Origin: a virus
Strand: one strand, 5' to 3'
Length of the DNA: 42,768 nucleotides
Virus record (IMG/VR): IMGVR_UViG_3300025885_000007
A program made the translations under genes and the position numbers. The notes under the pieces are model-generated. The model was not told the origin of the DNA and searched no databases. It was given only the letters and a program-made list of their open reading frames with translations. Shown here one piece after another: positions 1 through 20,312 of this stretch (the stretch's first letter is position 1; every line of letters starts with the position of its first letter).

Positions 1-99
1 GAGTAGGAGGCGAAGGGCTTCTGCTGGTTGGGCATCGGGCCTTCGCGGTTCTTCATCACCACCTTGCCATTGCCGATGGCGATACAGCGATGCCTCATT
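1..99. repeat. 99-bp terminal direct repeat, copy 1 (identical to 42670..42768); circular-assembly overlap or true terminal repeat
   Basis: Compared block by block: 1-99 equals 42670-42768 exactly. Confidence 0.95.
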
Positions 100-974
100 C
101 CATCGGTGACGAACTCGTCCGGGACGTCTCCGTGCATCTCCCAGATTTCCACCGGCTTGGCGAACTGCTCTTTCTGCCGCGCCATGTAGTCGTACTCGTT
201 CCGGAACGTGACCTTGCGCGAGACCCACTCCGAGGCCTGGGACCCCTGAAGCGGGTAGTCCCTGAGACGCATGACGGCATTGCGATCGAAGTAGGGATAG
301 GGACCGTTGGCATCGTCCATCAGGTTGTCCCAGTCGTCCCAGTAGCGGTGGATGACCCAGGTCATATCGGCAATCCGCTTCCGGGCCGGCTGCTGCCAGA
401 AGTCGAGACGATCCACAACTTCCCAGGTCGGGCCGTTGAATAGCTCGGCCTTGCCTTCGTACATGACCGGGATGGTGATGCCGGGGGCGATAGTCTCGTA
501 TTTCCGGTATCGGTTCATCCGGGTCAGGTTCTTCCAGCCCCACCGCGCGACACCAGTCCCGCAGATGTCGGCTTGGAGGAAGAAGTCCACCGCCCGCATC
601 ACCGAATCGGCGTCCTTCATCTGGGCCGAGACCAGGACTTCGTTTCTCTTGGCTCTTGCCACATCTTCCGGGGCGTAGCCCTCGAAGCTAACGATGGGCC
701 ACGCTCCGAACGACGTCTGCACCTTCCGGGCGACGTCGCTCTGGATCATGGCAAAGGTGAAGGGGATGGTGATGTTGTTCCGGAACTGAGCGATTCTTCC
801 ACCCCAGATGCCGCGGTAGGTGTTGTAATGCTTCTGGGTGTTGGCGAAGGTGGTGGCGTTGTAGTCCATAGAGGCTTTGCGCCTCGCATCCACCAGTTCG
901 ATGATCCGGTCATCGGAAACGCCAAACCTATTCGGAGGCGCCGCCCCCGTCTTCCCGGCGTACGGAGAAGCCAC
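1..974 (-). CDS. Portal protein, N-terminal part; the gene wraps the window junction and continues at 42768..41733
   Basis: The frame of ORF 41733..42767 stays open from 974 down to 100 and joins through the overlap (636 codons in total). GTG at 974 sits right after the TAG of the upstream gene, with a purine-rich SD. Alternative ATG at 869. Lies between TerL and the scaffold/capsid genes. Confidence 0.8.
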   Translation of the reverse strand, partial: MASPYAGKTGAAPPNRFGVSDDRIIELVDARRKASMDYNATTFANTQKHYNTYRGIWGGRIAQFRNNITIPFTFAMIQSDVARKVQTSFGAWPIVSFEGYAPEDVARAKRNEVLVSAQMKDADSVMRAVDFFLQADICGTGVARWGWKNLTRMNRYRKYETIAPGITIPVMYEGKAELFNGPTWEVVDRLDFWQQPARKRIADMTWVIHRYWDDWDNLMDDANGPYPYFDRNAVMRLRDYPLQGSQASEWVSRKVTFRNEYDYMARQKEQFAKPVEIWEMHGDVPDEFVTDGMRHRCIAIGNGKVVMKNREGPMPNQQKPFASY

Positions 975-1187
975 CTAGCCCTTCTTCCTCGGGCGGTACT
1001 TGCTGTAAGTCTGGGCGAGGTTGGCCTGCCGTCGGGTCTTGGGGTTGCTGGAGTGGGTGGCGGCTTCGATGCGTGCCGCTCCGATCTTCTCGCCTTCGGG
1101 GATTCCCAGCGAACGGTGGAGTCCGCCTTCGGAGGTGGATTCACTCACGGCCTGAAGCGGGCGCTGCTTGATCTTTGCACGGGCCAT
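975..1187 (-). CDS. Small basic protein (70 aa) with GGLHRSLGIPEGEKI motif; conserved small phage/bacterial family, function unknown
   Basis: ORF track; ATG at 1187. The GGLH..LGIP.G.KI plus NPKTRRQA pattern matches a family I recognise (name uncertain, possibly DUF3008-type). Confidence 0.6.
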   Translation of the reverse strand: MARAKIKQRPLQAVSESTSEGGLHRSLGIPEGEKIGAARIEAATHSSNPKTRRQANLAQTYSKYRPRKKG

Positions 1188-1196
1188 CCTAGCCCC

Positions 1197-1439
1197 CTAC
1201 AGAATCTTGGTGCGCTCGTCGATTTCTGCCCGGCCGGACGATACGGCATCGGCAAGGCTCCGGTCTATCGCAGTTATCAGTTTGTTGCGCTCGACGTTGA
1301 GGCTCACCAGCTTTTCGGTGGTCTCAGCGTCCAGCCCCTTCTTGGCGGCGCGGGCCTTGTGAACCAGGTCCTGAACCATGAAACCCTTGATGTTGACGAT
1401 GACGAGGCGGTCGATAAGAGAGCCAATGCTTTCGGTCAT
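1197..1439 (-). CDS. Small helical protein (80 aa), tentatively DUF4254-like
   Basis: ORF track. LIDRLVIVNIKGFMVQD...ERNKLITAIDR pattern. Sits immediately downstream of the GT9-like gene. The family call is tentative. Confidence 0.45.
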   Translation of the reverse strand: MTESIGSLIDRLVIVNIKGFMVQDLVHKARAAKKGLDAETTEKLVSLNVERNKLITAIDRSLADAVSSGRAEIDERTKIL

Positions 1440-1525
1440 GACTGAAGCTCCCGCCGATAGGCCTTCCCAGCCACAAAACCCACCTGCATGGCCTTGAGGA
1501 CGAGCCAGACCCAGACCCGAATCAC
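1436..1525 (-). CDS. 29-aa hydrophobic bridging ORF (MIRVWVWLVLKAMQVGFVAGKAYRRELQS)
   Basis: GTG at 1525 overlaps the upstream TGA (GTGA), and its own TGA overlaps the next ATG (ATGA). Below the ORF-track size cutoff. Confidence 0.3.
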   Translation of the reverse strand: MIRVWVWLVLKAMQVGFVAGKAYRRELQS

Positions 1526-2361
1526 GCTGTGACTTCCTGCTTGAGCCAGCGGTCCCGGAACCTTGGCCACTCCGTCCTCAGTACCGTCTCCGTCTCGTTG
1601 AGTTGGTTTTCTCCGAGGCCACTCCAGATGACTCGCGGGGCTTCCCCAATTGAATCGTGGACCCGGATAGAGTTGACCTTCATTGCTTGGGCAAGAGCCG
1701 CCATGGAAGAGCCACAACCGATGAAACAAGCGGCTTCACCCATGAGCTTGGCGGTCTCCAAAAGACTTCCTCCGTCGTCGAAGTCGCTCCAGTGGGGATA
1801 GGTTCGCGAACCAATCTCTCGGTCTGACTTGTCCCCAAGCCAGAGGACTTCGTCAAAGTGGTCGTCGAGTTCTCGGTGGATGCCGGCGAGGAACTTCCAG
1901 AAGGACGGGGTCTGTTTGGTGTGCGGGCAGATCGCTTGGCCATGGAGCAGGAGTAGATTCCTTTTGGTGGGTTGAGGGTCGAAGACGAAGCAGGGCTCGG
2001 TTTCCAGTGCTTTACGGTCGATGGTCACCGGCAGTTTGACGTTCTCCAGGGTTTCGAGCGTGATTTGCCGTTGCGGGAAGGTCCTGAACCCCATGTGGTA
2101 AATGCTGTGCTCGGCGAAGACCGAGGTCGGAAGGTTCATGTGGAACGGCTGCCCGCCGCACTGATAACCCTCTACCCCCTTCATCAGTTTGACCTCTCCC
2201 ACGCATGGCTGAGAGGCGAACAGGCTCTCCAGCGGCTTGCAGGTCCCTTCGTCGATCCAGCAGTCGAAGTTCTTTCCAGTGACTTTGGCCCACTGATACA
2301 TCACGGGAAACTGGAGGGTGGCATCTCCCATACGTCCCGGAAACGTCGCCACGATGCTCAC
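1522..2361 (-). CDS. GT9-like (heptosyltransferase-like) glycosyltransferase, 279 aa
   Basis: GTG at 2361 is preceded by GAAGGAGG and overlaps the upstream TGA. N-terminal IVATFPGRMGDATLQFPV and C-terminal LLETAKLMGEAACFIGCGSSMAALAQAM resemble the GT9 pattern. Confidence 0.55.
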   Translation of the reverse strand: MSIVATFPGRMGDATLQFPVMYQWAKVTGKNFDCWIDEGTCKPLESLFASQPCVGEVKLMKGVEGYQCGGQPFHMNLPTSVFAEHSIYHMGFRTFPQRQITLETLENVKLPVTIDRKALETEPCFVFDPQPTKRNLLLLHGQAICPHTKQTPSFWKFLAGIHRELDDHFDEVLWLGDKSDREIGSRTYPHWSDFDDGGSLLETAKLMGEAACFIGCGSSMAALAQAMKVNSIRVHDSIGEAPRVIWSGLGENQLNETETVLRTEWPRFRDRWLKQEVTA

Positions 2362-2975
2362 GAAGCCTCCTTCACGTAGAAAAGATCGTTGAGCGCATTG
2401 GGCTGAACCCGAGAAATCTTGGTGTAGCCGAACCCCGCCAAGTAGTCGTCGATCGGCCCGGTCAGATTCCAGCACTCGGTCACGATCACCTTGGGTCTCC
2501 ACCTAGCGAGCGCGATGCCTTTGAGCACGCTCAGTTCGGTGCCTTCGGTGTCGATGCAGAGGGCATCCAGCCTCGGGAACTCATGCTTGGCCAGCAATTC
2601 TTCGAGTGTTCGGACATCGACTTCGATCTGCTTCCAATCCAAGTACAGGGCGCGGCCCCGGGCGGGTACCTCCCCGATGGTCGAGTAAGCCTCCGGACCA
2701 TCGACGTTGATCGTCATAGTCGCCTTGCCGGTGAAGTCGGAGCAGGCGCATTTCTCCACGAACGCCCGGTGCCCGATGAGCCACTCGTGGAACTCCGGAT
2801 TGGGCTCCACGCTCAGGACCTTCCAGCGCCGCACCACCTCAAGGCCATAGGTGGTGTTGACGGTTTGGCCGTCTGAGGCTCCCACATCGATACAATAGCC
2901 GCGGTAGTTGGCGGGGAAATAGCTGGCGATGATGTCCGACAGGCCATGATTTGGCGAGACGCGCATGTGCGGCAT
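2358..2975 (-). CDS. FkbM-family SAM-dependent methyltransferase, 205 aa
   Basis: CIDVGASDGQT...VLSVEPNPE...LDALCIDTEGTELSVLKG motifs. ATG at 2975 lies 2 nt after the upstream TAG. The ORF-track N-terminal extension is alternate-frame. Confidence 0.75.
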   Translation of the reverse strand: MPHMRVSPNHGLSDIIASYFPANYRGYCIDVGASDGQTVNTTYGLEVVRRWKVLSVEPNPEFHEWLIGHRAFVEKCACSDFTGKATMTINVDGPEAYSTIGEVPARGRALYLDWKQIEVDVRTLEELLAKHEFPRLDALCIDTEGTELSVLKGIALARWRPKVIVTECWNLTGPIDDYLAGFGYTKISRVQPNALNDLFYVKEAS

Positions 2976-2977
2976 CG

Positions 2978-4198
2978 CTAGACCACAAAGCTTATGTCGG
3001 GAAGTGGGTACACGAAGGTCGTCCCGGCCTCTCTGAGCGCCGACTCTCTCTCGTGGAACTCGGACCGGAAAGCATAGGGAAAAACCATGCAGTAGTCGGG
3101 CTTGGCTTTTCTCAGGTCGGCCTCCGAGACAATCGGCAGCCATGACCCGACCGTGAACTTGCCTACCTTTGAGGGATTTCTGTCCGCCACCGCAAGAAAG
3201 CTATCGTCGCAGTCCAAATACTGGAGGATGGTCCCCATCTTGGTGCTAGCCCCGTACCCGTAGATCGGCCCCCTGGAGCGCATCGATCCCTTCAATAGGA
3301 ACCGCATCTGGTCCCGCCACTTTTTGATCCTTCTCGAAAAGGACTGCGCCTCTCCGGTTCCGACGTCGTAAAGGCCGATCAAATCAACTGCCCCTCCCGA
3401 GGCTGAATCCTTCATCGCGAATACCCTGACACTCCCGCCATTGACATCGTTGAACGTGATCCTGACGATCTTGAGCCCGTGCGCCTGGTAGATGTTCCGA
3501 AGCGCCGGCACCGAGTAATAGCAGAGGTGTTCGTGGCAAATGCTATCCACGGCATTGGTCTTCATCATCGTCCCGGCATCATTGAGTTGATTGATCCAGA
3601 CGCCGTCCTTGCTCAGCAGTCCCGCGATGTCGCGAACGAAGTCGCTGGGATTATCGACGTCGTAGAAGCAGGCCGCCGATGTGATGACCTGGACCGGGTC
3701 GTCCCTCAGGTCCCGGATGGCTTTCTCTGAGAAGTAGTTGGGGACCACGACGTCGGAGTGCTCCTGAAGCTGGGCGGTGAAGTTGGCCGCAGGCTCACAA
3801 GAGATGCGGACGAAGTTCTCGGGAACCATCGAGAGCAGGGTGCCGTCGTTGGCCCCGATGTCGAGCCATGCGCCCTCGTCGTGGAAGTCTCCGGCCGAGA
3901 AGACTAGATCTCTCAGAGCGTCGCGCATGGTCTGGTTGATTCCGGAGCGGTAGTAGAACTCCCGATAGAGCAGGTCGGGGTCTACCGTATGCTGAAGCTG
4001 TAGCAGGCCACAGAGGGCGCACTGGACCAGATGCAACGGACTCTTGGGGAGGGTGTCATCGGGCTCTTCGACGAAACGGGGGAGATAGTGGACTCCCAGG
4101 TCGAGCACCGAGACCAGCGTCTTCGATCCGCAGGCGCGGCAGGTATGACGCTCGGTATAGACCGGCTGGGCCACGGGCTCGACTTTGGACTTTCTCAT
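2978..4198 (-). CDS. NDP-hexose C-methyltransferase-like enzyme (TylCIII/NovU type: zinc-binding N-domain, SAM MTase, C-methyltransferase C-domain), 406 aa
   Basis: CRACGS...LVQCALCGLLQL zinc motif, YYRSGINQTM, LDIGANDGTLL SAM motif. ATG at 4198 with an AAGG SD. Confidence 0.7.
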   Translation of the reverse strand: MRKSKVEPVAQPVYTERHTCRACGSKTLVSVLDLGVHYLPRFVEEPDDTLPKSPLHLVQCALCGLLQLQHTVDPDLLYREFYYRSGINQTMRDALRDLVFSAGDFHDEGAWLDIGANDGTLLSMVPENFVRISCEPAANFTAQLQEHSDVVVPNYFSEKAIRDLRDDPVQVITSAACFYDVDNPSDFVRDIAGLLSKDGVWINQLNDAGTMMKTNAVDSICHEHLCYYSVPALRNIYQAHGLKIVRITFNDVNGGSVRVFAMKDSASGGAVDLIGLYDVGTGEAQSFSRRIKKWRDQMRFLLKGSMRSRGPIYGYGASTKMGTILQYLDCDDSFLAVADRNPSKVGKFTVGSWLPIVSEADLRKAKPDYCMVFPYAFRSEFHERESALREAGTTFVYPLPDISFVV

Positions 4199-4347
4199 GG
4201 CTGAGCCTTGAGCTTCATGCACCGCTTGAGCATGTTGGCGAGCCAGTGGGCGTCCACGAGTTTCATGCGATGAAGCCATACGGCTGCGACTGCTGCGGCA
4301 TGGATCTCTTCCTCGCTCGGTTCCGTGACGAAGATGCTTTGGGTCAT
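4195..4347 (-). CDS. 50-aa hypothetical protein (MTQSIFVTEPSEEEIHAAAVAAVWLHRMKLVDAHWLANMLKRCMKLKAQP)
   Basis: ATGA overlaps at both ends (with the TerL stop and the C-methyltransferase start). Fills an otherwise empty 145-nt gap. Below the ORF-track cutoff. Confidence 0.5.
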   Translation of the reverse strand: MTQSIFVTEPSEEEIHAAAVAAVWLHRMKLVDAHWLANMLKRCMKLKAQP

Positions 4348-6134
4348 CTCAGGGGCTCCCTAGGCACCGTTTCTCTCCATGAACGACTTTCGTCATCTTC
4401 GTAATCGTAGGGGTCGATGCCTTCCATGTAAATCGGCCGCGCTCCTCGGTCGTAAGCGGCCTTCTGGGTGTTGACCCTTCGCATCGGCTGGTAAAGGTCG
4501 GGCTGGAAGGCATCACTGAATGCGTCGGCTCGGTCAATCTTTAGTTTGGGGTTGACCATGTACTGGCCGATCCGAACGATTTGGTCAATGAGACCAATCA
4601 GTCCGGGGCCTTCCTTCACGAACTTCACGTGACCATCGACAATGTAGTTAGCCGCTGCTACCAGTCTCCCGGTAGGACCTCCGACCGAATGCTGGGCTTT
4701 GGGGGTCGAGTGTCTTGAGAACTCGTAGAAGGGCGGCATCGGCTCTCCCACGTCGTTGAAGTAGTTCTTGAGCAGCGGCTCCCATACGCCCTTTTTGCCT
4801 GACATCGTAGGCTCGTCGGTGATGGCGAAGACCCTGCGTCCCAGCCTGCGGTATTGCTGGACCTTGGCCACCAGGCGCTTGGCGAAGTCTTCCCCTCTCC
4901 AGGTGTTGGAGTAGGCGCACTCCACGACGTAGACATCTCCGCTTCCGTTTCTTGGATAGCCGACCACGACGTAGACGGTTTCATCCTTCCCTGCGAGTTT
5001 GCTTCCGTCCCAGAAGGCGGTATCACAGAGGATGGCGAAGCGGCACGTACCCCAAGGAAGGTCCTGAGGCGAGATCCAGCAGGCTTCCTGCATGCACTGA
5101 TCTCTCGTGACCGGATTGAACTCGGAAATACTGGGGTCGTTCATGACCTGGGCAGCGTATCTCAGGGGGTCGCGTCTCTGGAAGTCCTTGAGCCGTTTCT
5201 CAGGCCAGACCTTTGGAGTGGTGGGGTTGCCGTCTCGGTCTCTTCCCGCCAGGAAGTAGACGTGCCACTTGCCGTCCTCGGTGGTTGCGAGTGAGTCCGA
5301 CTCCATGCCGGAGATCGAAGCAATGCCTTCCTCACGGAATGCGGTGCCGAAGTGATCATCATCTCCGTACCTCGTGCCGACCCAGATGACAAGTCCATCG
5401 GATTGGATGACCGGGAACATGGAAGTCACCTGAGAGTTGACAGCAGAGAACCAGTTGGTGTCGGAGATCATGCGTTCGTAGGAGTTGGGGTCGTCCTCGA
5501 TCCACACGTCTGGGTGGGCTCCCACAATGCTGGTCTCTACGGCAAAGGTGCCGAAGCTCGGGTCCTTGCGGCTGGTGTTTCTTCGGGCCGAGTGGACGAT
5601 TTCCTTGCCGGTCCAGGTGCGGGCTCCGCTGCTCCAGTTGCCATAGAGCTGGGTGAAGAGCGAATAGGGGTCCGACCCATCGAAGACGGCTTTGATGCCG
5701 GCCAGCATCTTCTGGGAGAGTTCGGTTCTCTCGGAGCCGATGTAGATGCTCAGTTCCGGGTCTCTCAAGGCCAGCCATGAGGCTCCGGCCTGATTGATCA
5801 GCGTGGTCTTGCCGACCTCTCGGTGAACTAATACGGCGATGTGCTTCTGTTGACCTCGGCCGAGTCGTCTCCACTCCAGCCACTCGTCGATATGATGCTG
5901 GAACCATCGGGCGATGGGCTCGTGGATCTTGGGGTCGATCCAGACCTTGCCTTTGGGATTGGACTCAGCGCCAAAGACGGTGGTGAAGAAAGTCCAGAAG
6001 TCCAAACGGCCCGCATCTCGGAGCAGGGCCATTTCATCATCAGCGACGTCGGACCATCCGAGTCCGGGAGTGACGACTCTAGGTTTGCGGGACAACGGGC
6101 TCGTCCTTGAGGCTCTTGAGGAAGGTGGCGGCAT
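4344..6134 (-). CDS. terL: Terminase large subunit
   Basis: Walker A-like VHREVGKTT, Walker B-like DVWIEDDP, and a C-terminal nuclease-like region (ILCDTAF, ITDEP). Start is uncertain: ATG 6134 overlaps terS by 56 nt; alternative ATG at 6032 (MALLRDAGRLDFW). Confidence 0.85.
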   Translation of the reverse strand: MPPPSSRASRTSPLSRKPRVVTPGLGWSDVADDEMALLRDAGRLDFWTFFTTVFGAESNPKGKVWIDPKIHEPIARWFQHHIDEWLEWRRLGRGQQKHIAVLVHREVGKTTLINQAGASWLALRDPELSIYIGSERTELSQKMLAGIKAVFDGSDPYSLFTQLYGNWSSGARTWTGKEIVHSARRNTSRKDPSFGTFAVETSIVGAHPDVWIEDDPNSYERMISDTNWFSAVNSQVTSMFPVIQSDGLVIWVGTRYGDDDHFGTAFREEGIASISGMESDSLATTEDGKWHVYFLAGRDRDGNPTTPKVWPEKRLKDFQRRDPLRYAAQVMNDPSISEFNPVTRDQCMQEACWISPQDLPWGTCRFAILCDTAFWDGSKLAGKDETVYVVVGYPRNGSGDVYVVECAYSNTWRGEDFAKRLVAKVQQYRRLGRRVFAITDEPTMSGKKGVWEPLLKNYFNDVGEPMPPFYEFSRHSTPKAQHSVGGPTGRLVAAANYIVDGHVKFVKEGPGLIGLIDQIVRIGQYMVNPKLKIDRADAFSDAFQPDLYQPMRRVNTQKAAYDRGARPIYMEGIDPYDYEDDESRSWRETVPREPLR

Positions 6135-6612
6135 CGGCTTTGGACTGCTTCTCGTCGCGGATGATCTTGCGGGCTTTTTCCTGACACCATGCTGTGACTG
6201 CGACCAGTCCTCGGCCTCTCGGGTAGCCCTGGGGTGTGCCGGATCGTTTGAGCGCCGGCCATTCCCGATAGAGCTGCTTGACGCTCTTGATTCTCAGGGC
6301 GCGGAGTTCTTCTTCCTGGGTCAGGCCGTCTTCGGGGATGACTGGTGCCACGTCTCCGAGATCATTGATCTGGTGCGGGAAGGCTTCGGAGAAAGCGGCA
6401 CGGCAGAGATCCACTCCGAAGGCTTTCATGATCCGCATCATGCGGTGGACTCTCTCGGCGTGAGTTTGAGGCTCGGGCAAAGTAATAGCAGTTCCGCCCC
6501 GGTCCTCGCGCAGCATTTTCAGGGCGCGGAGCTTATCAGCGCCTTCGCCGTTGAAGGCGACGTCTTCGATCTCTTTGGAGATCTCGTCGATGGTGCGCTT
6601 GGGGTCGCTCAT
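6079..6612 (-). CDS. terS: Putative terminase small subunit (177 aa)
   Basis: Assigned by position only. It lies immediately upstream of and overlaps terL, and has an ATGA overlap with the preceding gene. No motif recognised. Confidence 0.4.
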   Translation of the reverse strand: MSDPKRTIDEISKEIEDVAFNGEGADKLRALKMLREDRGGTAITLPEPQTHAERVHRMMRIMKAFGVDLCRAAFSEAFPHQINDLGDVAPVIPEDGLTQEEELRALRIKSVKQLYREWPALKRSGTPQGYPRGRGLVAVTAWCQEKARKIIRDEKQSKADAATFLKSLKDEPVVPQT

Positions 6613-7679
6613 TCTTTCTTATAGGTGACGCAGATGGCTCCCCATGTCGGGACCCCGTCGAAGGCCGGATCGAGGTTGACTCCGGTTTTCGCCGCTGTGT
6701 AGCCCTCAGTGAACGGCGGTGCGGTGCTCAAAACCTGCCGATATCCGGTGGTGAGCGCAAGCCTGTTGGTGGCCTCGCTCACGTCGTGGAGTCCGGTGAG
6801 TCCACCGCTCCATGTTCCGCCAATAGTAATCCCGGCGCCGTCACTGTAGACCGCACCGACGAGCCCGAACACCAGTTCCTCCGACTGGGAGATTCCCCCG
6901 GTCGATCCCGATGATGGCTGATCCGGGTCAGCGCCCGCGGCATCGCCAGCGACGTCAAGCGCGGGAGAGGATAGTTGGGTCGCCTGGGCAACCGTGGCTA
7001 GGATTTGAAACGTATCGACGGGCCCGGTGATCACCACGCTTCCGGTGCCTGCGGTGAGGTCATTCCTCGAAAAGACGGACAGTCCGACATTTTCTCCAGC
7101 GGTTGAGAAATCGGGGTCCATGGAGCGGTCTCGTGCAAGCGATAGTCCGTTCCAGGTTACGCTCCCGCTCTGGCCTATTGTGTTGGTGGACGCCCAGACG
7201 ACGGACACGATGATGCTAGATCCCTGGCTCATGGCGACGTTGGGAATGGTCAGGACATTTGCGGAGGCGGTCGCGGAGCCCTTGTCGGTCACGCTGATCA
7301 TGAAGAACGCTCGTCCGCCGCTGAAGACGTCGGAGGTGCTTCTGCCGGTGGTGTGACCCGATGTCCCTCTCGCCGCGGAGTCGCCCCTCGCATCCGCCGT
7401 GGCGACGGTGATGCCCTTGCTCTTGAACTTACATTTGGGATTGGTGCACTCGGTCTCCCGTCGGATCGGGACTCGGGAGATGAGTTTGGTTTCGAGCGGC
7501 GACTTGCATCTTGGACAGCGCATGATTTCGCGCGCTGGAGTCTCGGCTGTGCGGGTTGCGTCCTGCGTGGGCATCGGGCCCAGCAGAGAGACTGAGCCTC
7601 GCGGTGGCAGCACGACTTTCGGGGCTGGCTTGATCTGGGGCTTGGGAAGCTTGCGGTCGGGATCGCGCTTGGCTTTCAT
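6609..7679 (-). CDS. Zinc-ribbon protein with a beta-rich C-terminal domain (356 aa), function unknown
   Basis: ATG at 7679, 8 nt after the upstream TAG. CPRCKS...ECTNPKCKF ribbon. The upstream 230 codons of track ORF 6609..8369 are an alternate frame of the neighbouring gene. Confidence 0.65.
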   Translation of the reverse strand: MKAKRDPDRKLPKPQIKPAPKVVLPPRGSVSLLGPMPTQDATRTAETPAREIMRCPRCKSPLETKLISRVPIRRETECTNPKCKFKSKGITVATADARGDSAARGTSGHTTGRSTSDVFSGGRAFFMISVTDKGSATASANVLTIPNVAMSQGSSIIVSVVWASTNTIGQSGSVTWNGLSLARDRSMDPDFSTAGENVGLSVFSRNDLTAGTGSVVITGPVDTFQILATVAQATQLSSPALDVAGDAAGADPDQPSSGSTGGISQSEELVFGLVGAVYSDGAGITIGGTWSGGLTGLHDVSEATNRLALTTGYRQVLSTAPPFTEGYTAAKTGVNLDPAFDGVPTWGAICVTYKKE

Positions 7680-7687: not shown

Positions 7688-8431
7688 CTATCCGTGGACT
7701 TCGATCCAGAGTTCGGCAACATCGAGGTCGGCGGTGTCGATAGCGGGTGAGGCACCAGACCAAGAGTAACGCAGGGCCACGTCGGTCAGTGCATTGACCG
7801 AGGCCCAACTCCATGGTTGGCCGTTGGGCTGGAGTGTAATTTGGCCGGTGCCGACGAAGAATTGCGGGCGGCTGTCTCCGACCCAGCTCTGGTCCCGTTC
7901 CAAGACAAATCCAACTGCGGCAACATCTCCTCCCACACCATTGGTCCCGAGCCCGGTGCCGATGGTCGGGTCGTCGTTGATGGCTGGAGACTCGGCGGAA
8001 TCGGGGCCGACGGTCCAGCCGAAGCGAGTCCCGGGATGGGTGGGAAATCCCGGCCAGGTCGAGGATGCTCCACCGTTCCATGCCACGCGGACATAGGGCC
8101 CGACGTCGGCGATGAACGCCTGAGCCCTGAACTTGAGGTAGCGGATGGCGAAGGTTTGAAAATGTGTCGGGACGTCGGCGATGACGGTGGCCTTGACTTC
8201 GGCAGTGCCGCTCGCTTGTGGGGAGGCTTGTCGGTAGCTGGTGGTGGTCTGGGGGCTTTGGTCGCCGAGTGGGCTTGGGGTCGTTGGCCTGACGATCACC
8301 AGCTTCGGTGCCGGAGGGCTGCCCCAGAAAATCAATTCTCGTTTGAACGAGAATCCGCACTCGGAGCAAACTTCACCGAGGTTGAGATGTCCACATTCGG
8401 GGCACGGGGCTAGTCCAGAAATGCTGGCCAC
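7688..8431 (-). CDS. Zinc-ribbon protein with a beta-rich C-terminal domain (247 aa), function unknown
   Basis: GTG at 8431 overlaps the upstream TAG by 1 nt. CPECGH...CSECGF ribbon, a Pro/Ser/Thr linker, then a Trp/Gly-rich domain. Confidence 0.65.
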   Translation of the reverse strand: MASISGLAPCPECGHLNLGEVCSECGFSFKRELIFWGSPPAPKLVIVRPTTPSPLGDQSPQTTTSYRQASPQASGTAEVKATVIADVPTHFQTFAIRYLKFRAQAFIADVGPYVRVAWNGGASSTWPGFPTHPGTRFGWTVGPDSAESPAINDDPTIGTGLGTNGVGGDVAAVGFVLERDQSWVGDSRPQFFVGTGQITLQPNGQPWSWASVNALTDVALRYSWSGASPAIDTADLDVAELWIEVHG

Positions 8432-11210: not shown

Positions 11211-11426
11211 ATGAAGTGGTTCTGGATCATCCTTGCGGCCGGCGTCGGATTGGTCGCACTCAGCTCGCTCACCAGCATGCTTGGGGCAGCAGCCTCCCAA
11301 CGGAGTGACTTCGGAGTCATTGCCGCGAGCGTCCTAGGCATTGTCATGGTCGCTGCCGCGGTGCCGATTACGCTCCATTTCATCAAAAAGGCTCAGGGAA
11401 CGAGCGAAACCAAGGAGAAGCCTTGA
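11211..11426 (+). CDS. Two-TM small membrane protein (71 aa)
   Basis: Two hydrophobic segments (WFWIILAAGVGLVALSSL and VIAASVLGIVMVAAAVPITL). Its stop overlaps the next start. Confidence 0.6.
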   Translation: MKWFWIILAAGVGLVALSSLTSMLGAAASQRSDFGVIAASVLGIVMVAAAVPITLHFIKKAQGTSETKEKP

Positions 11427-12268
11427 AGCGCATTCTGCCGCTCGCCGCACTCGTCATGCTCTCAGGCTGTGGAATGACCACCATTCCTCCCGGATGGGAA
11501 GGCATCCGAGTCAACAACGTCGGGGCTCGGCGTGGCACCGAGGATTATCCCGTCCAGACCGGGCGACTGTTCTACAACCCATTCACGGAGGACGTTTACA
11601 AGTACCCGACCTCCAAGCAGAACTATGTCTGGGCCGCCGGGAGCACCGAGGGAAAAGCCAACGACGAGAGCATTAGCTTCAATAGCGTCGAGGGCACGGC
11701 CATCAGTGCAGACGTAGGTGCTGTGTTCAACGTCAAGACCGGCAAGACCCCGGCCCTGTTTGTGGCCTACCGCAAGGACATCGGAGAACTCACCGACGGC
11801 ATAATCCGCAACGAAGTCCGCGATGCCCTGAACCGTGAAGCCGGCCGCATGAAAGTCATGGACATCATCGGCCCCAAGAAATCCGCCCTGCTCGATAGTG
11901 TCAAGGTGGACTTGAACGCCGGGCCGCTCGGCAACTACATCTCGTTCGAGACTGTGAGTTTCGTTCATGCCCCACGCCCCGACCCCCAGGTTGCGGCTGC
12001 AATCAACGCGGTGATTACCGCTATGAACAACGCCAATGCCGCGACCGCCAAAGTGCAGCAGGCCAGAGCCGAGGCGGAGCAGATCGTGGCCACCGCCCGT
12101 GGAGACTCGGCCTCCAAGGTCATCAACGCCGTCGGTCAGGCCGAGGCCAACCGCATCTTGAATGCTTCCCTAACTGGGAATCTGATCGAATGGCGCAAGC
12201 TGGAGAAATGGGACGGCTCGCTCCCGCAAGTCACCAGCGGTGGCGGCATCATCGTCGGCTTGAAGTAG
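11423..12268 (+). CDS. SPFH/Band-7 (prohibitin-like) domain lipoprotein, 281 aa
   Basis: TTG start preceded by AAGGAGAA. Signal peptide with lipobox LSGC. SPFH-like core followed by an Ala-rich helix and a C-terminal W.G.LP motif. Confidence 0.75.
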   Translation: MKRILPLAALVMLSGCGMTTIPPGWEGIRVNNVGARRGTEDYPVQTGRLFYNPFTEDVYKYPTSKQNYVWAAGSTEGKANDESISFNSVEGTAISADVGAVFNVKTGKTPALFVAYRKDIGELTDGIIRNEVRDALNREAGRMKVMDIIGPKKSALLDSVKVDLNAGPLGNYISFETVSFVHAPRPDPQVAAAINAVITAMNNANAATAKVQQARAEAEQIVATARGDSASKVINAVGQAEANRILNASLTGNLIEWRKLEKWDGSLPQVTSGGGIIVGLK

Positions 12269-12274
12269 GTCATA

Positions 12275-12339
12275 CCGCACGTTATGGGCAATGGCGTGCG
12301 GCTCGCCCGGGGGTCGGTTCGAGGGAATCGGCCCCGGGC
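12275..12339 (+). terminator. Two consecutive GC-rich hairpins after the SPFH gene (putative terminator or insulator; no U-tract)
   Basis: CCGCACG (12275-12281) pairs with CGTGCGG (12295-12301). GCCCGGGG (12305-12312) pairs with CCCCGGGC (12332-12339). Confidence 0.4.
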
Positions 12340-12411
12340 ATCCTGAGATGGATGCAACGCGATTCCGCAACGCCCTTCGCTCGCACCGGAGGTAAAGCGT
12401 TGCCACGAGAA

Positions 12412-12427
12412 TGGCACGAGGCTGGCA
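12412..12427 (+). promoter_or_regulatory. Sigma54-type -24/-12 promoter candidate
   Basis: TGGCACG-aggc-TGGCA against the consensus TGGCACG-N4-TTGCW, with correct GG/GC spacing. Lies in an intergenic gap about 50 nt upstream of ATG 12479. Confidence 0.35.
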
Positions 12428-12478
12428 ATAGCGTATGGGTACGCAGTCAACGCAGCGGACCCCAGCAAGGAGCAGACG

Positions 12479-12985
12479 ATGGAAGCCACCAGCAGAGAAT
12501 ACGTCAGCGTCACCGACACGGCGAAGATGCTGCGCGAAGCCCTCAAGCGCAATTGGCCGAGCATCAAGTTTTCGGTCCGCTCCAAGTCCTATGCTGGCGG
12601 CGCTTCGATCCGTGTTACCTGGCAGGATGGGCCGAGTGGCGCGATGGTGGACAAGGTTGCGCAGCGGTTCCACGGTGCCGACTTCGATGCAATGGTTGAC
12701 TTGAAGTCGAGCGTCGAGCAAATCCTCGTCGGCAGCGACGGTGCTATCCGTAGCGTGCGCTTCGGTGCCGATTACGTCTTTTGCAGCCGCGAGACGAAGG
12801 ACGGACTCGAAGCGGCCTGCATCGCCGAGTACGCCAAGAACTACGGCGGCGATCTGAACGACTGGCAGGCGCAGCGCAGCCGAGACCACTCGATTATGAC
12901 CTCGCTCGCCGAGCTTTCAATCCCGGCCGACGAGCCTGTCACCGAGACGGCGCGGCGCGTGGTCGATCATATCTACCGGGGGTAA
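12479..12985 (+). CDS. Hypothetical protein (168 aa), tentatively LPD29-like domain
   Basis: AAGGAG SD. The TAKMLREALKRNWPSIKFSVRSKSYAGGASIRVTWQDGP...FDAMVD pattern is seen in phage and plasmid polyvalent-protein-associated domains. Confidence 0.55.
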   Translation: MEATSREYVSVTDTAKMLREALKRNWPSIKFSVRSKSYAGGASIRVTWQDGPSGAMVDKVAQRFHGADFDAMVDLKSSVEQILVGSDGAIRSVRFGADYVFCSRETKDGLEAACIAEYAKNYGGDLNDWQAQRSRDHSIMTSLAELSIPADEPVTETARRVVDHIYRG

Positions 12986-12987
12986 AC

Positions 12988-13353
12988 ATGACCGACAAGT
13001 TACACGGCACCGCGATTGACGGCTTCGAGCTTCACAAGGTCCAACTGCGCCCCAACAACGGCATGGAGATTGACGCCTGGCTAGACGATCAAACGCTATT
13101 CGTGCTCCGCGTGGACTCTCGCGCCGGGCACGTCAACGTGTCGTGGGACGGGCGCAGCGTCTTTGATTCTGGAGTCATTACTCCACTATCGGACCCACAG
13201 ATTGAGGCTCTCAAGTCGCAGGTAGCCAAGCTCCGCGCCGCCCTGGAAGGCATCACCACGAGGGACAGCGTAGAGCGACGACACGAAGTCTGTTTCTATC
13301 ATGACCACACGACAAGCTGCGATATATGCGACGCCTTGGGTTCCTCATCATGA
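12988..13353 (+). CDS. Hypothetical protein, 121 aa
   Basis: ATG at 12988, 2 nt after the upstream TAA. The upstream part of the track ORF is alternate-frame. Confidence 0.5.
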   Translation: MTDKLHGTAIDGFELHKVQLRPNNGMEIDAWLDDQTLFVLRVDSRAGHVNVSWDGRSVFDSGVITPLSDPQIEALKSQVAKLRAALEGITTRDSVERRHEVCFYHDHTTSCDICDALGSSS

Positions 13354-13748
13354 AGCGCCTGCCCATCAAGGCGGCCCGCGACGTGGCGAAAGCCTACAGC
13401 CTCTCGCAAGTAATCCTCGCAGCGTGGGACGGAGAGCGGACGCATATCGTGACCTACGGCAAGACGACAGAGGACTGCGCGCAGGCAGCAATGGGCGGAA
13501 ACAAGATCAAGGACGCCCTCGGCTGGCCCAAGTACCTGCACGCTGAACCATCCCGCATCAAGACGCTGCTCGCCTCTAATTCCGAATTACTGGCGGCGGC
13601 TGAGTTTGCCATTCTCACCATGGGCGGCGAGAACATCATGGGTGGGTGCTCGACCTGCGGCACAGAGAAGCAAGGCCAGCACGCGGACGATTGCTCCTAT
13701 GTGCTGGTGCGCGAAGCAATCCGCAGAGCCCGGAGAGCACATGCCTGA
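13350..13748 (+). CDS. Hypothetical protein, 132 aa
   Basis: ATGA overlap with the upstream gene. Conserved-looking N-terminus IKAARDVAKAYSLSQVILAAWDGERTHIVTYG. Confidence 0.5.
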   Translation: MKRLPIKAARDVAKAYSLSQVILAAWDGERTHIVTYGKTTEDCAQAAMGGNKIKDALGWPKYLHAEPSRIKTLLASNSELLAAAEFAILTMGGENIMGGCSTCGTEKQGQHADDCSYVLVREAIRRARRAHA

Positions 13749-14085
13749 CGACTCCGGGAAGTACATCACGCACGAGCAGGCGATGCGAGAGGCAGACGCC
13801 TGGGGCCGGGTGCGTCTTAGCCTGAAACTCCACGAAATGACCATCCGCTCCGGTGCCGGGTCGGCTGCCGAGTTCAATTCCCGCAATGAGTTGCTTCAGG
13901 AAATATCGAGATACGCCAGCCCACATCTAGCGGTATGGAAACCCCAGGAAGTCGGCTGGACATCTCAGGCTGCCCTCACGGAGCTTGTTGACCTCGTGGA
14001 ATCAATTATCTCCGACGGCAAGCTGAGAGACGAAACAGACCGAAAGGCGAGAGAGATTATCGCCCGTCTGAGGCCGGAATCATGA
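13741..14085 (+). CDS. Hypothetical protein, 114 aa
   Basis: ATG at 13741 overlaps the upstream gene by 8 nt. Confidence 0.5.
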   Translation: MPDDSGKYITHEQAMREADAWGRVRLSLKLHEMTIRSGAGSAAEFNSRNELLQEISRYASPHLAVWKPQEVGWTSQAALTELVDLVESIISDGKLRDETDRKAREIIARLRPES

Positions 14086-14306
14086 ACCCGACGCCAGAGA
14101 AATGGGATACATGGGAGTATTTCGACCCCCACAAGAAAGGCCAGCCGACCATCGCCACGCACCGAATCTACGACATTGGGGAAACGGAGGCCTGGTGCCT
14201 CGTGATCGTCAAAGCGGATGGCCGCTCGTTCAAGGCCGCATATCCGCTGATCGACTTCACGCGACGCGATTCGCCTTACCGCCTAGCCGTGTGGACCGTC
14301 CGATGA
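14082..14306 (+). CDS. Hypothetical protein, 74 aa
   Basis: ATGA overlap at both ends. Confidence 0.5.
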   Translation: MNPTPEKWDTWEYFDPHKKGQPTIATHRIYDIGETEAWCLVIVKADGRSFKAAYPLIDFTRRDSPYRLAVWTVR

Positions 14307-14527
14307 GCATGTATGCCGACCTCATGCTGTCCCGCCTGCTCTCTGGCTTCGATGAACTGATTGCCCGCTCAAAGCTCTGCAATCTGCCGGAAGTGGCAAC
14401 CAGGCTGGAGGAACTTCGGGACGTGATCCAGCGAGGCGTTGATCTTAGAAAGCTGGTCGAGCAGGAGGAACGCAATGCCCGCAATCGCACAACGCCCGAT
14501 GCCAAGCAAGGCTCTGATGCAGGGTAA
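14303..14527 (+). CDS. Hypothetical protein, 74 aa
   Basis: ATGA overlap with the upstream gene. Confidence 0.5.
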   Translation: MSMYADLMLSRLLSGFDELIARSKLCNLPEVATRLEELRDVIQRGVDLRKLVEQEERNARNRTTPDAKQGSDAG

Positions 14528-14636
14528 CGAGATGCGGCTGGCACCTGAGATGCACTACTCGGACGGTGCGGCAAGTCGCCGCGAGATGACGGGGCCGGCT
14601 GCAGACGGACCCGACCAACGACGGAGGATGCGATGA
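14517..14636 (+). CDS. Possible 39-aa bridging ORF
   Basis: ATG at 14517; its TGA overlaps ATG 14633 (ATGA). It competes with the -24/-12 motif reading of the same gap. Confidence 0.2.
   Translation: MQGNEMRLAPEMHYSDGAASRREMTGPAADGPDQRRRMR
14539..14554 (+). promoter_or_regulatory. Second sigma54-type -24/-12 motif
   Basis: TGGCAC-ctgaga-TGCA with consensus GG/GC spacing. Lies in the 105-nt gap between 14527 and 14633. Confidence 0.25.
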
Positions 14637-14866
14637 CGCGGTTCCTGCACATGGCCTTCTCGGTAGACATCGCCCGCTGGCCAGATAGTCGGCTCGCTGG
14701 CTTGATGTCCGAAGTGATGGACGACGGCACGGAGCGCCCGCTTGCCGTTGAGGAGATTCGTGCCCATATCGCCGATCTCAAGGCGCGGGGATTCGAGGTC
14801 GTGCCGCCGTGCGACAACAGCGACCCCAAGACCGGGCGCTGCCTCGGCCACGAGCGTGCATCGTGA
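14633..14866 (+). CDS. Hypothetical protein, 77 aa
   Basis: GGAGGA SD; ORF track. Confidence 0.5.
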   Translation: MTRFLHMAFSVDIARWPDSRLAGLMSEVMDDGTERPLAVEEIRAHIADLKARGFEVVPPCDNSDPKTGRCLGHERAS

Positions 14867-15168
14867 CCCCCGACACCAAGCAGGCGCACACTCCGGACGG
14901 TGGCAAGACGCTCGCCCTCTTGATGGCCGACGACAAGCTCTCTGCCATCCTCAAGACGCTCGGCAAGCTGATGCGGACGCTCGACGGGGACGACGAAGGA
15001 TACAGCTTTGAGGTGGCGCACAGCGATCTGTGCCCGGCGCGTGGCCACTACGCGACGCATCATCAGTGCGGATGCGGATTGGCTGACGCCATCGACCGGC
15101 TGCACGAAGCCGAAGCCGATGCGAACAACGTGCGCGAGCAACTCGCGCTGCTCGGGAGGCGCAAGTGA
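14863..15168 (+). CDS. Hypothetical protein, 101 aa
   Basis: GTG at 14863 forms a GTGA overlap with the upstream stop. Confidence 0.45.
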   Translation: MTPDTKQAHTPDGGKTLALLMADDKLSAILKTLGKLMRTLDGDDEGYSFEVAHSDLCPARGHYATHHQCGCGLADAIDRLHEAEADANNVREQLALLGRRK

Positions 15169-15374
15169 GACAGATTCATGTGCTGCTGACTCTTAGTGAA
15201 GACGAGGCCAATGCCTTGGCTGCGGTCGGCCAGTCCACCGATGAGTTTGTCCGAGTCACCCGCTCTCAGTGGGAACGACTCAAGCGAGACGCCACTGAGA
15301 TGCAGTCGTGGAGCCCGGAGCCGCAGACCCGCGAGCAGAGACAAGAATATGCGAAATCGTGGGGGATGAAATGA
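15165..15374 (+). CDS. Hypothetical protein, 69 aa
   Basis: GTGA overlap with the upstream gene. Confidence 0.45.
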   Translation: MRQIHVLLTLSEDEANALAAVGQSTDEFVRVTRSQWERLKRDATEMQSWSPEPQTREQRQEYAKSWGMK

Positions 15375-15580
15375 CCCGCTGGCAGTACCAGGAATGGAAC
15401 CTGACTCCCATCGGTCGGGACTATCAGCAATGGCTCGACTACGAAGCGGTTGCGTCCTTCTGCACCTTCATGGGCAGGCAACTGTGGGAGGCGGACCGTC
15501 AAACTGCCAGAGCCGAGAACATGGACCGGCTCCGTAAGCTCCACCAGGAACTGAGAGAGAAATACGGGGACCCGAGATGA
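15371..15580 (+). CDS. Hypothetical protein, 69 aa
   Basis: ATGA overlap; MTRWQYQEW start. Confidence 0.45.
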   Translation: MTRWQYQEWNLTPIGRDYQQWLDYEAVASFCTFMGRQLWEADRQTARAENMDRLRKLHQELREKYGDPR

Positions 15581-15660
15581 AACTGCTGGGCTTGGTTGCG
15601 GTCGGGGCGGCGCTGTTCTTTCTCGGGGCTTGGGCTCTGCTGGGTTGGGCCGGCCAATGA
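15577..15660 (+). CDS. 27-aa hydrophobic peptide (MKLLGLVAVGAALFFLGAWALLGWAGQ)
   Basis: ATGA overlaps at both ends; a single TM-like segment. Below the track cutoff. Confidence 0.4.
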   Translation: MKLLGLVAVGAALFFLGAWALLGWAGQ

Positions 15661-15944
15661 CTCTGAGAGAAGAACTGGCGCAGAGGATGCACAGGGTTTA
15701 TTGGGCCGAGATAAAAATGAAGTTTCCGGAACTGTATCCCGCCACCGAGCGTGCCCCACATGCAGCGACACTTGTCGGCTACTTGGCCCAAGCCGACGAG
15801 TGCATCCGGCAGATGGAGTGGGCGCGCACTCGGCAATGGGTCCAGATCGACAGCAGCGGCCAGCCATTCATCCACAGCGGCGACTGGGGCACGCCTTGGC
15901 ACATGAAGTCGCTCACGCTCGCCCCCGAGGACTGGAAACCATGA
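15657..15944 (+). CDS. Hypothetical protein, 95 aa; paralog of 9129..9404
   Basis: Shares the MTLREELAQR, ADECIRQMEWAR and TLAPEDW motifs with the minus-strand gene. Confidence 0.6.
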   Translation: MTLREELAQRMHRVYWAEIKMKFPELYPATERAPHAATLVGYLAQADECIRQMEWARTRQWVQIDSSGQPFIHSGDWGTPWHMKSLTLAPEDWKP

Positions 15945-16096
15945 CCGACCTCTAGCGCCGCGCCTGGGAAAGCTGGCTCTTTGAACTTGCCCTAGCGGCA
16001 AGGTTCAGACGCACCCGCACCGTCCTGCGGGAAGCCCAGAAATACGCAGACAGGTTGGAAGTGGAGCGCATCATCGCAGCATCGAGGCAGCCATGA
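15941..16096 (+). pseudogene. 51-codon reading frame with ATGA overlaps at both ends, interrupted by an in-frame TAG at codon 5 (15953-15955)
   Basis: Reads ATG ACC GAC CTC TAG, then 46 open codons (RRAWESWLFELALAARFRRTRTVLREAQKYADRLEVERIIAASRQP) ending in a TGA that overlaps ATG 16093. Confidence 0.3.
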
Positions 16097-16293
16097 GCGG
16101 AGCGAAGTACGCCACCGTCTTTGAGAGCATCGCCAACCTTGAGGCGGGGGGAGACTTTCATGTGCTTCTGGATACGGCACTGGTTGAAGGACTGAAGCCC
16201 GAAGTCGCCAAAGAGTTCCTCGACTGGGTCAACAAGATCCATGAGCAAGGCCTCAGGCCGCGCCACTGTCCTTTTTGTGGAGTTCCAGTATGA
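16093..16293 (+). CDS. Hypothetical protein, 66 aa
   Basis: ORF track. Confidence 0.45.
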   Translation: MSGAKYATVFESIANLEAGGDFHVLLDTALVEGLKPEVAKEFLDWVNKIHEQGLRPRHCPFCGVPV

Positions 16294-16538: not shown

Positions 16539-16738
16539 CGCAGTGGCGAGAAAACCTGTTGGCCCGTGGCTATGTGCCCGGGCAGCGTCCTCTCGTAGAC
16601 ATGGTGTGGGACCTCCCCGACTGGCCGACACCCGACCCCGGAGAGCCCGTTGAAGATTATCTCGCCCGCCTCCGGCACCACCGCCGCGAGTGCGAGGCGT
16701 GGGAAGCGAAGCACCAAACCCGCCCGGAGGACAAGTGA
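16535..16738 (+). CDS. Hypothetical protein, 67 aa
   Basis: GTGA overlap. Confidence 0.45.
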   Translation: MTQWRENLLARGYVPGQRPLVDMVWDLPDWPTPDPGEPVEDYLARLRHHRRECEAWEAKHQTRPEDK

Positions 16739-20090: not shown

Positions 20091-20103
20091 GGAGGATGCT
20101 GAC

Positions 20104-20310: not shown

Positions 20311-20312
20311 CG

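Follow-up and report, generated by a model that had tools for sequence, protein, structure and literature searches.

A sugar-tailoring gene cassette between terminase and portal in an uncultured podovirus, a candidate system for virion glycosylation

Between the genes for the large terminase subunit (TerL) and the portal protein of an uncultured podovirus, we describe a cassette of sugar-tailoring genes that very probably forms a module for building a methylated glycan. The virus is IMG/VR record IMGVR_UViG_3300025885_000007, a stretch of 42,768 nucleotides that is called the window throughout, and the cassette occupies positions 975-4347. It encodes a predicted nucleoside diphosphate (NDP)-hexose C-methyltransferase (C-MT), an FkbM-family methyltransferase, a GT9-like glycosyltransferase (GT9L), and a DUF4254-like protein, and a second glycosyltransferase (GT) gene lies in the head module. 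We put the chance that the glycan decorates a virion protein at about even. Five observations lead to this reading. The cassette appears translationally coupled to TerL and portal, with the second GT inside the head module, and its position is strictly retained over more than 30 diverged lineages. The enzymes are exclusively soluble, the set needed for particles assembled in the cytoplasm. No integrase was found among the scanned ORFs (open reading frames) of the window (some small ORFs fell outside the scan, here and for the other absences reported for the window), and no prophage copy was found in 185,579 species genomes, which removes the usual rationale for envelope conversion. Finally, mycobacteriophages offer a precedent, in which GT and O-methyltransferase genes modify capsid and tail tube.

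Gene packing and enzyme assignments

The TerL-portal interval holds seven tightly packed ORFs, all on the minus strand. ATGA or GTGA overlaps join TerL to orf50, orf50 to C-MT, FkbM to GT9L, GT9L to orf29, and orf29 to the DUF4254-like gene, and the remaining three junctions have spacers of 2, 9, and 0 nt. The original prediction had reported this packing at the same coordinates and had called it unusual on the ground that packaging and portal genes are normally adjacent. Both statements hold, the second for this capsid lineage: the cultured Pseudomonas phage tf, which has the same major capsid protein (MCP) family, has TerL abutting portal with nothing between. An independent public gene caller gives the same genes (583, 50, 406, 205, 279, 80, and 70 amino acids [aa], TerL being the first), orf29 excepted; the longest ORF for C-MT begins at 4279, yet the product on the public record is the identical 406-aa protein. 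The GC content at third codon positions (GC3) of the cassette, 0.68-0.79, is the same as that of neighbouring genes and the rest of the genome, and promoter- and terminator-like sites within it are no more frequent than in shuffled sequence. Acquisition of the cassette as a recent moron was considered and rejected, given the shared GC3 and the lack of signals of its own. None of the seven proteins has a transmembrane-like segment (maximum KD19 <1.4).

The assignment of C-MT as an NDP-hexose C-methyltransferase, predicted from profile and structure-sequence matches, is solid and agrees with its earlier description as TylCIII/NovU-like. The protein exceeds the Pfam cutoffs for PF08421 (Methyltransf_13; 5e-12, 46.2 bits versus 31.3), PF13489 (Methyltransf_23; 1e-11, 45.1 bits versus 27), and PF08484 (Methyltransf_14; 2.7e-27, 96 bits versus 23.5), and it aligns end to end with PDB entries for the D-mycarose 3-C-methyltransferase MtmC (4rv9; 1e-36), TcaB9 (1e-31), and KijD1-type enzymes (1e-26). 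Among 120 phage homologs, the CxxC...CxxC motif of the N-terminal Cys4 zinc site and the DIGANDG S-adenosylmethionine (SAM) motif are invariant in 118-120, and the Glu-His pair equivalent to Glu224/His225 of TcaB9 is invariant. His181 of TcaB9 is replaced by Asp in 119 homologs and Tyr222 by Cys in 112, and the position of Tyr76 is Tyr in the window protein and Trp in most relatives (TcaB9 positions were taken from mutant chains in the PDB alignments). Mutagenesis of TcaB9 by Bruender and Holden in 2012 reportedly probed Tyr76, His181, Tyr222, Glu224, and His225 as active-site residues. C-MT therefore appears to keep the predicted catalytic dyad while its substrate-lining residues are altered. 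The enzyme has no PHROG family, and homologs occur in only 7 of 50,697 GenBank phage records.

In two related loci (numbered here with the prefix L), C-MT is a 766-aa ORF with an intein (Intein_splicing, LAGLIDADG_3, and Hint; L050:3685-5985, also L109) whose insertion point immediately precedes the Cys of the invariant C-H-E-H motif. Two others have a LAGLIDADG intein at the GTRY motif of TerL (L046:1274-4222, also L075). An intein within a sugar C-methyltransferase is unusual. Inteins usually persist at conserved sites of indispensable genes, and the location of this one in the catalytic motif argues that C-MT is important for phage reproduction; it may serve as an unusual marker of the enzyme's indispensability.

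The FkbM family assignment, already made in the original prediction, is likewise solid by profile match (PF05050, 8.7e-19, 68.7 bits versus a cutoff of 22.7; TIGR01444, 8.4e-17, 62 bits versus 37.7; phrog_8156, 1e-6), and the predicted enzyme is probably a sugar O-methyltransferase.

GT9L is placed by structure. No Pfam, NCBIfam, or PHROG family, Glyco_transf_9 included, matches at E ≤ 0.01-0.1, and neither phmmer nor the family profile finds a PDB match, the profile returning only spurious dihydropteroate synthase matches. An AlphaFold2 model from 26 homologs (predicted local distance difference test [pLDDT] 90.6; predicted TM score [pTM] 0.90) was compared with the PDB by Foldseek, and the top nine matches are all GT9 (TMq 0.55-0.69, E 1e-8 to 2.5e-7), led by Veillonella GT9 3tov, WaaC 2gt1/2h1h, and WaaF 1psw (TMq 0.61-0.69, E ~1e-8). 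Lower ranks are taken by TibC, a protein heptosyltransferase, and EarP, a protein rhamnosyltransferase, and structural neighbours in BFVD include phage proteins named GT9, RfaF, or Aah/TibC. This confident model predicts a GT-B fold closest to GT9, so the earlier call of a GT9-like glycosyltransferase stands as regards fold and finds no counterpart in sequence profiles. Homologs form 48 clusters in a 5.8-billion-protein collection, typically on contigs of ~40-45 kb, and only 272 relatives occur among 1.84 billion representative proteins. There was no tblastn match in the 50,697 GenBank phage records and, with the patterns used, no match in a profile scan of 185,579 bacterial species genomes. 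Distant relatives are fused to Glyco_transf_9, GT2, class I methyltransferase, or PLOD-type GT domains, and two of these carry a separate borderline Glyco_transf_9 domain; fusions with GT and methyltransferase domains tie the fold to methylated-glycan synthesis.

The 80-aa ORF at 1197-1439, previously described simply as a small helical protein, is predicted to be a DUF4254 fragment. It scores 31.6 bits against PF14063 (cutoff 27) over model positions 73-137 of 144, that is, the C-terminal half. DUF4254 has been linked to the lipopolysaccharide (LPS) gene RfaF in Flavobacteriia (PMC9425974), and with its DUF4254 gene directly after GT9L the phage reproduces the bacterial GT9-DUF4254 gene pair.

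The original prediction's second GT-B glycosyltransferase, at 36966-38288, is borne out. The protein matches phrog_7162 (7e-28) and falls below the Pfam cutoffs for Glyco_trans_1_2 and Glycos_transf_1 (21.6 and 18.3 bits); many of its orthologs pass PF00534, PF13524, or PF13692. Foldseek matches to its AlphaFold2 model (pLDDT 89) are headed by TreT, MshA, PglA, BshA, and PimA (E ~1e-13) and include the methylmannose-polysaccharide (MMP) mannosyltransferase 7qsg. The model thus matches a GT4-type GT-B glycosyltransferase, as which the protein is predicted. Its gene position between head genes and adaptor is kept in all relatives, and the gene is still found at 30-33% identity in L120 and L125, both without the cassette.

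A fixed core in a variable slot

Synteny in related phages was mapped by tblastn and hidden Markov models in 71 IMG/VR loci encoding GT9L and in further loci from a portal-profile scan, and it places the core in the same slot. The order TerL, C-MT ... GT9-like, portal is common to all relatives whose portal is ≥55% identical and whose flank is long enough, and C-MT and the GT9-like gene are both present in 31 of 36 nonredundant complete TerL-portal intervals. Given this recurrence, the arrangement is confirmed as not due to chance.

Membership in the system is narrower than the six to seven genes first proposed. C-MT, FkbM, GT9L, and the DUF4254-like gene recur in relatives, whereas orf50, orf29, and basic70 are not conserved members. 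orf50 has no family match and no homolog in any related locus, and its status as a real gene is uncertain; that of orf29 is doubtful, as it too lacks a homolog in any locus and relatives have GT9L abutting DUF4254. The sole homolog of basic70 (83% identical) lies upstream of the small terminase subunit gene (TerS) in L048/L084 (L048:1175-1372), and its C terminus weakly resembles ribosomal protein Thx (a sub-threshold match). basic70 has the look of a small mobile gene and is probably not part of the sugar system.

Around the core, gene content varies widely. The 36 intervals show 25 gene orders (about 20 among the 31 with the core), the slot ranges from 2.1 to 7.3 kb, and a core-bearing slot has 1-4 FkbM genes along with 0-5 members of a ~210-aa paralog family. 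Of the 31 core-bearing relatives, 18 have DUF4254, nearly always directly after GT9L, and in some lineages part of the set lies directly upstream of TerS. The window, which is identical to L126, has the minimal order C-MT-FkbM-GT9L-DUF4254, common to L064; L069 has the same four genes in a different order. Free-standing HNH genes sit inside the sugar cassette of several relatives (L001:10816-11361, L037, L042, L050, L052, L054, and L062).

The ~210-aa paralogs are probably GT2-like GT-A enzymes, a weaker assignment than the others and one drawn mainly from a match of the family profile to the Pfam GT2 domain of the GT9L-GT2 fusion P0368 (E 1.6e-5, 438-sequence set). Weak Pfam GT2-type matches were found for 4 of 20 members, and the family shows an Asp-Asp pair with little or no variation; comparison by hhalign with two individual GT2 sequences returned nothing. 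Matches to foot-and-mouth disease virus VP2 in a PDB profile search were set aside as chance.

More distant relatives fill the slot with other genes. L120-L122, with portals ~40% identical, lack the C-MT/GT9 set; they encode a DegT/DnrJ-type nucleotide-sugar aminotransferase (L120:1907-2998, also L121 and L122; 1e-24 to WbpE and perosamine synthetase-type enzymes) and a small methyltransferase (L120:3497-4072, also L121 and L122), separated by a 169-aa ORF. In L123-L125 the slot holds only a ~200-aa gene. Across these phages, the TerL-portal slot behaves as a hotspot for sugar-tailoring genes.

A blastn search of positions 900-6200 against GenBank phages gave no match, nor did the portal-profile scan of the 185,579 species genomes. 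With the GT9L scan equally empty, these genomes yield neither a prophage nor a cellular ortholog and do not assign a host. One related phage is represented by an 8.8-kb contig (L130; GCA_035288285.1, DATEAQ010000114.1) that lies in a metagenome-assembled genome named 'Candidatus Methylomirabilis sp.'; this binning is the sole host hint and is too weak to name a host.

Donor sugar and target of the glycan

No nucleotide-sugar synthase, dehydratase, or reductase was found among the scanned ORFs of the window, and the clue to the substrate comes from larger phages. On a 105-kb contig, L071, the series GT9-like, FkbM, C-MT is followed by an NAD-dependent epimerase/reductase, one ORF, and then a GDP-mannose 4,6-dehydratase (Gmd; 2e-108), within a cluster (L071:441-15002) that also has GT2, GT1-like, sulfotransferase-like, and IMPDH/GMP-reductase-family genes. 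In the cultured Synechococcus phage DSL-LC02 (L134; OR032571, 91157-110365), a C-MT homolog 33% identical lies between an annotated GDP-mannose 4,6-dehydratase and a GDP-L-fucose synthase, and glycosyltransferases and FkbM then follow. Gene context in both lineages, with Gmd and a reductase beside C-MT, points to GDP-4-keto-6-deoxy-D-mannose as the likeliest substrate for C-MT enzymes of this clade. A GDP-linked, manno-configured donor would also fit GT9L, whose nearest structural relatives use ADP-manno-heptose, and the conserved Gmd, C-MT, and reductase context suggests a way, open to testing, of making a rare branched sugar linked to GDP. On a 30-kb viral contig (L072:306-10190), an APH-like kinase, a nucleotidyltransferase-HAD fusion, and a WavE-like gene precede the GT9-like/C-MT pair, and an 866-aa pectate-lyase-type tailspike comes after it; the kinase/phosphatase/nucleotidyltransferase set resembles an NDP-heptose activation pathway.

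In the scheme that we propose, the module would be cytoplasmic, independent of lipid carriers, and expressed together with virion genes. The sequence indicates that its genes share a transcript with TerL and portal and are coupled to them in translation. C-MT would add a C-methyl branch, presumably at C-3 by analogy with TcaB9 and MtmC, to a host-made NDP-4-keto-6-deoxyhexose, likeliest GDP-4-keto-6-deoxy-D-mannose from the Gmd of the host. Since the window encodes neither, a host 4-reductase or epimerase would complete the donor. The C-methyl sugar would be transferred by GT9L, probably with a DUF4254 partner; the donor of its nearest structural relatives is a purine-nucleotide manno-heptose. 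FkbM would O-methylate the glycan, and the GT4-type enzyme, seemingly the older and more widely conserved transferase, may prime it or add a second sugar. Where relatives have additional GT2-like and FkbM paralogs, these would extend and vary the glycan, in which case the TerL-portal slot would behave like a serotype locus. We consider it plausible, if somewhat short of an even chance, that the slot is a hypervariable glycan serotype locus of this kind, in which a fixed core (C-MT, GT9L with or without DUF4254, and the head-module GT4) hijacks host GDP-4-keto-6-deoxymannose and GT2-like and FkbM paralogs particular to each lineage assemble distinct C- and O-methylated glycans directly on virion proteins.

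Several points weigh against decoration of the virion. No acceptor motif was identified, and glycosylation sites were not predicted, there being no reliable rule for doing so. The best structures for GT9L are LPS core heptosyltransferases, with the protein-modifying TibC and EarP scoring lower, and DUF4254 is tied to LPS RfaF in bacteria (PMC9425974). The C-MT/GT/FkbM clusters of the cyanomyovirus and of the 105-125 kb contigs lie outside structural modules. Clusters in such places are usually read as host-surface remodelling. With no Gmd or reductase in the window, the pathway would depend on host enzymes, and the GT9L and portal profile scans of the species genomes assigned no host. Moreover, the MCP of the window is 87-95% identical to that of L041/L080, L048/L084, and L105, while TerL, portal, and cassette proteins are 46-69% identical; for L041 and L048 the figures are 93-95% for MCP and 46-67% for cassette proteins. 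High MCP identity beside low flank identity points to recent MCP gene exchange between lineages. This indicates that MCP is exchanged independently of the cassette, and if MCP were the acceptor, its recognition would not be tightly co-evolved.

The main alternative is that the enzymes remodel the host envelope. Modification of the LPS core, O-antigen, or capsule of an infected cell might, for instance, prevent superinfection or keep progeny from adsorbing to debris. WaaC and WaaF as the best structural matches of GT9L and the DUF4254-RfaF link in Flavobacteriia would fit such a role, as would the WavE-like LPS gene and sugar-activation set (kinase, nucleotidyltransferase-HAD) that flank GT9L/C-MT in L072, the location of the DSL-LC02 cluster among host-like auxiliary genes, and a variable GT and methyltransferase content like that of O-antigen loci. 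Against this, the genes appear translationally coupled to TerL and portal in the late operon, and envelope glycans would matter little if they appeared only minutes before lysis. Nor does lysogenic conversion seem a likely role, with no integrase and no prophage copies. Membrane-associated, lipid-carrier, flippase, and ligase genes are lacking, and a census of the cassette found no flippase, polymerase, ligase, or polyprenyl-phosphate transferase. An hhalign comparison of the GT9L family with a WaaC sequence gave a weak local match (probability 10%, E 0.003) that sets Gly-Ser-Ser of GT9L opposite the Asp-Thr-Gly sugar-binding motif of WaaC, a difference to be taken as a lead only. Envelope remodelling is in our view unlikely. 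A gtr-type seroconversion module (gtrABC) was considered separately and rejected, as there is no integrase and no transmembrane segment and the site is the packaging/head operon.

It is improbable, more so than envelope remodelling, that the acceptor is soluble or otherwise outside the virion, the product being a free methylated oligosaccharide or glycoside or a modified nonstructural phage or host protein. Enzymes of the C-MT family are chiefly familiar from the biosynthesis of antibiotic deoxysugars, and the GT4 model matches enzymes acting on small molecules or polysaccharides (MshA, BshA, TreT, and 7qsg); however, the window has no aglycone or export genes, and synthesis of a metabolite would not readily account for a strict head/packaging position in more than 30 lineages. 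Glycosylation of phage DNA bases before or during packaging is very improbable. In its favour are the adjacency of cassette and terminase, the C5-cytosine-methylase-like gene at 21604-22464, a very weak TET-associated glycosyltransferase match (E 0.09) of one GT-A-like paralog from a relative, and the existence of late-expressed DNA modification, as in Mu Mom. Against it, no hydroxymethylase, TET/JBP, DpdA, or aGPT-Pplase was detected among the scanned ORFs, C-MT is by prediction a nucleotide-sugar enzyme, and up to five extra GTs and four O-methyltransferases would make an oligosaccharide far beyond known DNA modifications.

Genome context and known systems

The first 99 nt of the window (1-99) equal the last 99 nt (42670-42768), which indicates that the assembly closes into a circle and that its true length is 42,669 bp. 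Samples ENA ERZ27264538 and JGI 3300005445 contain this genome. Late genes run on the minus strand from ~11400 down through 1 and then from 42768 to ~25300, and early genes occupy the plus strand at 11423-25406 (Table 1). The structural module is SU10-type (the public annotation gives the portal as SU10_portal, PF23899), and the virus is an uncultured podovirus, the nearest cultured relatives by MCP (≤31% identity) being podoviruses of Proteobacteria. The head genes also include a scaffold gene (40639-41376) and genes for small head proteins (38285-39519). TerL, 583 aa in the public gene call, is 51-78% identical to TerL of related loci.

Table 1. Cassette genes and flanking structural genes of the window
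Feature	Position	Strand	Description
orf50	4195-4347	-	50-aa ORFan; ATG overlaps TerL stop, stop overlaps C-MT ATG
C-MT, predicted NDP-hexose C-methyltransferase	2978-4198	-	406 aa; Zn-ribbon, class I SAM, and C-terminal Methyltransf_14 domains
FkbM-family SAM methyltransferase	2358-2975	-	205 aa
GT9L, predicted GT9-like GT-B glycosyltransferase	1522-2361	-	279 aa; GTG start overlaps FkbM stop
orf29	1436-1525	-	Hydrophobic 29-aa ORF; GTG overlaps GT9L stop, TGA overlaps DUF4254 ATG
DUF4254-like	1197-1439	-	80 aa; PF14063, 1.7e-7
basic70	975-1187	-	70 aa, pI 11
Predicted GT4-type GT-B glycosyltransferase	36966-38288	-	440 aa; between head genes and SU10 adaptor gene
TerL, large terminase subunit	4344-6134	-	phrog_38, 3.4e-40; upstream flank of cassette
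Portal, N-terminal part	1-974	-	GTG start at 974; downstream flank of cassette
Portal, C-terminal part	41733-42768	-	Same ORF across contig junction
MCP	39659-40615		PF17236, 2e-52
Adaptor	36039-36956		PF24175

Two late genes without a family match lie directly upstream of TerS (6609-7679 and 7688-8431); the 356-aa public product of the first has a zinc-ribbon-like CxxC...CxxC stretch and, after it, a C-terminal domain rich in Ser, Thr, and Gly. Early genes include those for an SPFH/Band-7 protein (11423-12268), an LPD29-domain protein (12479-12985), a PD-(D/E)XK nuclease (17510-18358), and a protein with a partial C5-cytosine DNA methylase match (21604-22464), as well as two HNH genes (17037-17528 and 20133-20774). 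Neither a DNA polymerase nor an integrase was detected.

To our knowledge, reports of glycosylated virions among bacterial viruses are essentially confined to some actinobacteriophages. If the virion is indeed the target, glycosylation would extend to a large family of uncultured podoviruses, comprising >70 IMG/VR contigs and >120 clusters of C-MT (90% identity). The chemistry would be unprecedented, with a host intermediate hijacked to make a deoxysugar that is O-methylated and bears a C-methyl branch, and this would be the first C-branched sugar known on any virus particle. Chlorovirus and mimivirus capsid glycosylation would then have a counterpart among bacterial viruses, with phage surface glycans diversifying via a dedicated hypervariable locus, like bacterial O-antigens. 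Such glycans would bear on phage stability, environmental adsorption, and recognition by hosts or grazers, and on the interpretation of those virome genes for glycosyltransferases and methyltransferases that are classed as 'auxiliary metabolic'.

Phage-encoded virion glycosylation and viral glycan clusters are already known kinds of system. What appears to be new is the predicted enzyme set, namely, a C-MT without a PHROG family and a GT9-like/DUF4254 pair without a GenBank phage homolog, together with its TerL-portal location and locus-like hypervariability around a fixed core. Literature searches found no description of this enzyme set in phages, which is absence of evidence only.

The closest bacterial-virus parallel is that of mycobacteriophages Che8, Corndog, and Myrna, in which capsid or tail-tube proteins are glycosylated by phage GTs whose genes adjoin an O-methyltransferase gene (Freeman et al. 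2023, as described in PMC11600133 and PMC12363180). The pairing of GT with methyltransferase is alike in the window, and the mycobacteriophage system likewise acts in the cytoplasm and has accessory genes that vary within a phage group. The enzyme families differ, however, and the mycobacteriophage set includes no NDP-hexose C-methyltransferase, GT9-like enzyme, or DUF4254 protein. Unlike in mycobacteriophages, the genes lie here in the TerL-portal slot with one GT in the head module, and the virus is an SU10-type podovirus rather than a siphovirus or myovirus of Actinobacteria. Glycosylation has been demonstrated in mycobacteriophages, whereas here it is inferred.

Among eukaryotic viruses, chlorovirus PBCV-1 has A064R-type GT-GT-methyltransferase enzymes that work in the cytoplasm, independently of the host, to place O-methylated glycans on capsid proteins, and the glycan structure has been demonstrated. 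The multidomain GT-methyltransferase fusions of giant viruses resemble the fusions of GT9L relatives, and giant-virus GTs are among the structural neighbours of GT9L; in contrast, the enzyme families of PBCV-1 are unrelated to those described here.

Individual enzymes resemble cellular systems to differing degrees. The phage C-MT shares with TcaB9, MtmC, TylCIII, and KijD1 all three domains over its full length, the Cys4 and SAM motifs, and the Glu-His dyad, but it is only ~25-30% identical to them, gene neighbourhoods in other phages point to a GDP-sugar and not a dTDP-sugar, and the window phage has no other deoxysugar genes. As in the WaaC/WaaF and DUF4254 pairing of Flavobacteriia, a predicted GT-B enzyme closest to GT9 adjoins a DUF4254 gene. 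Yet GT9L has 279 aa against ~320-350 aa for WaaC/WaaF, is 11-14% identical to them, and lacks a Pfam Glyco_transf_9 match, and the phage DUF4254 protein corresponds to the C-terminal half of the family model only. Finally, DSL-LC02 and the phages of L071/L073 (105-125 kb) have the same C-MT clade (33-41% identical), FkbM, and several GTs, and L071/L073 also a GT9-like homolog. These large phages bring their own Gmd and reductase in a cluster outside the structural module, whereas the window phage has a stripped-down set inside its packaging/head operon.

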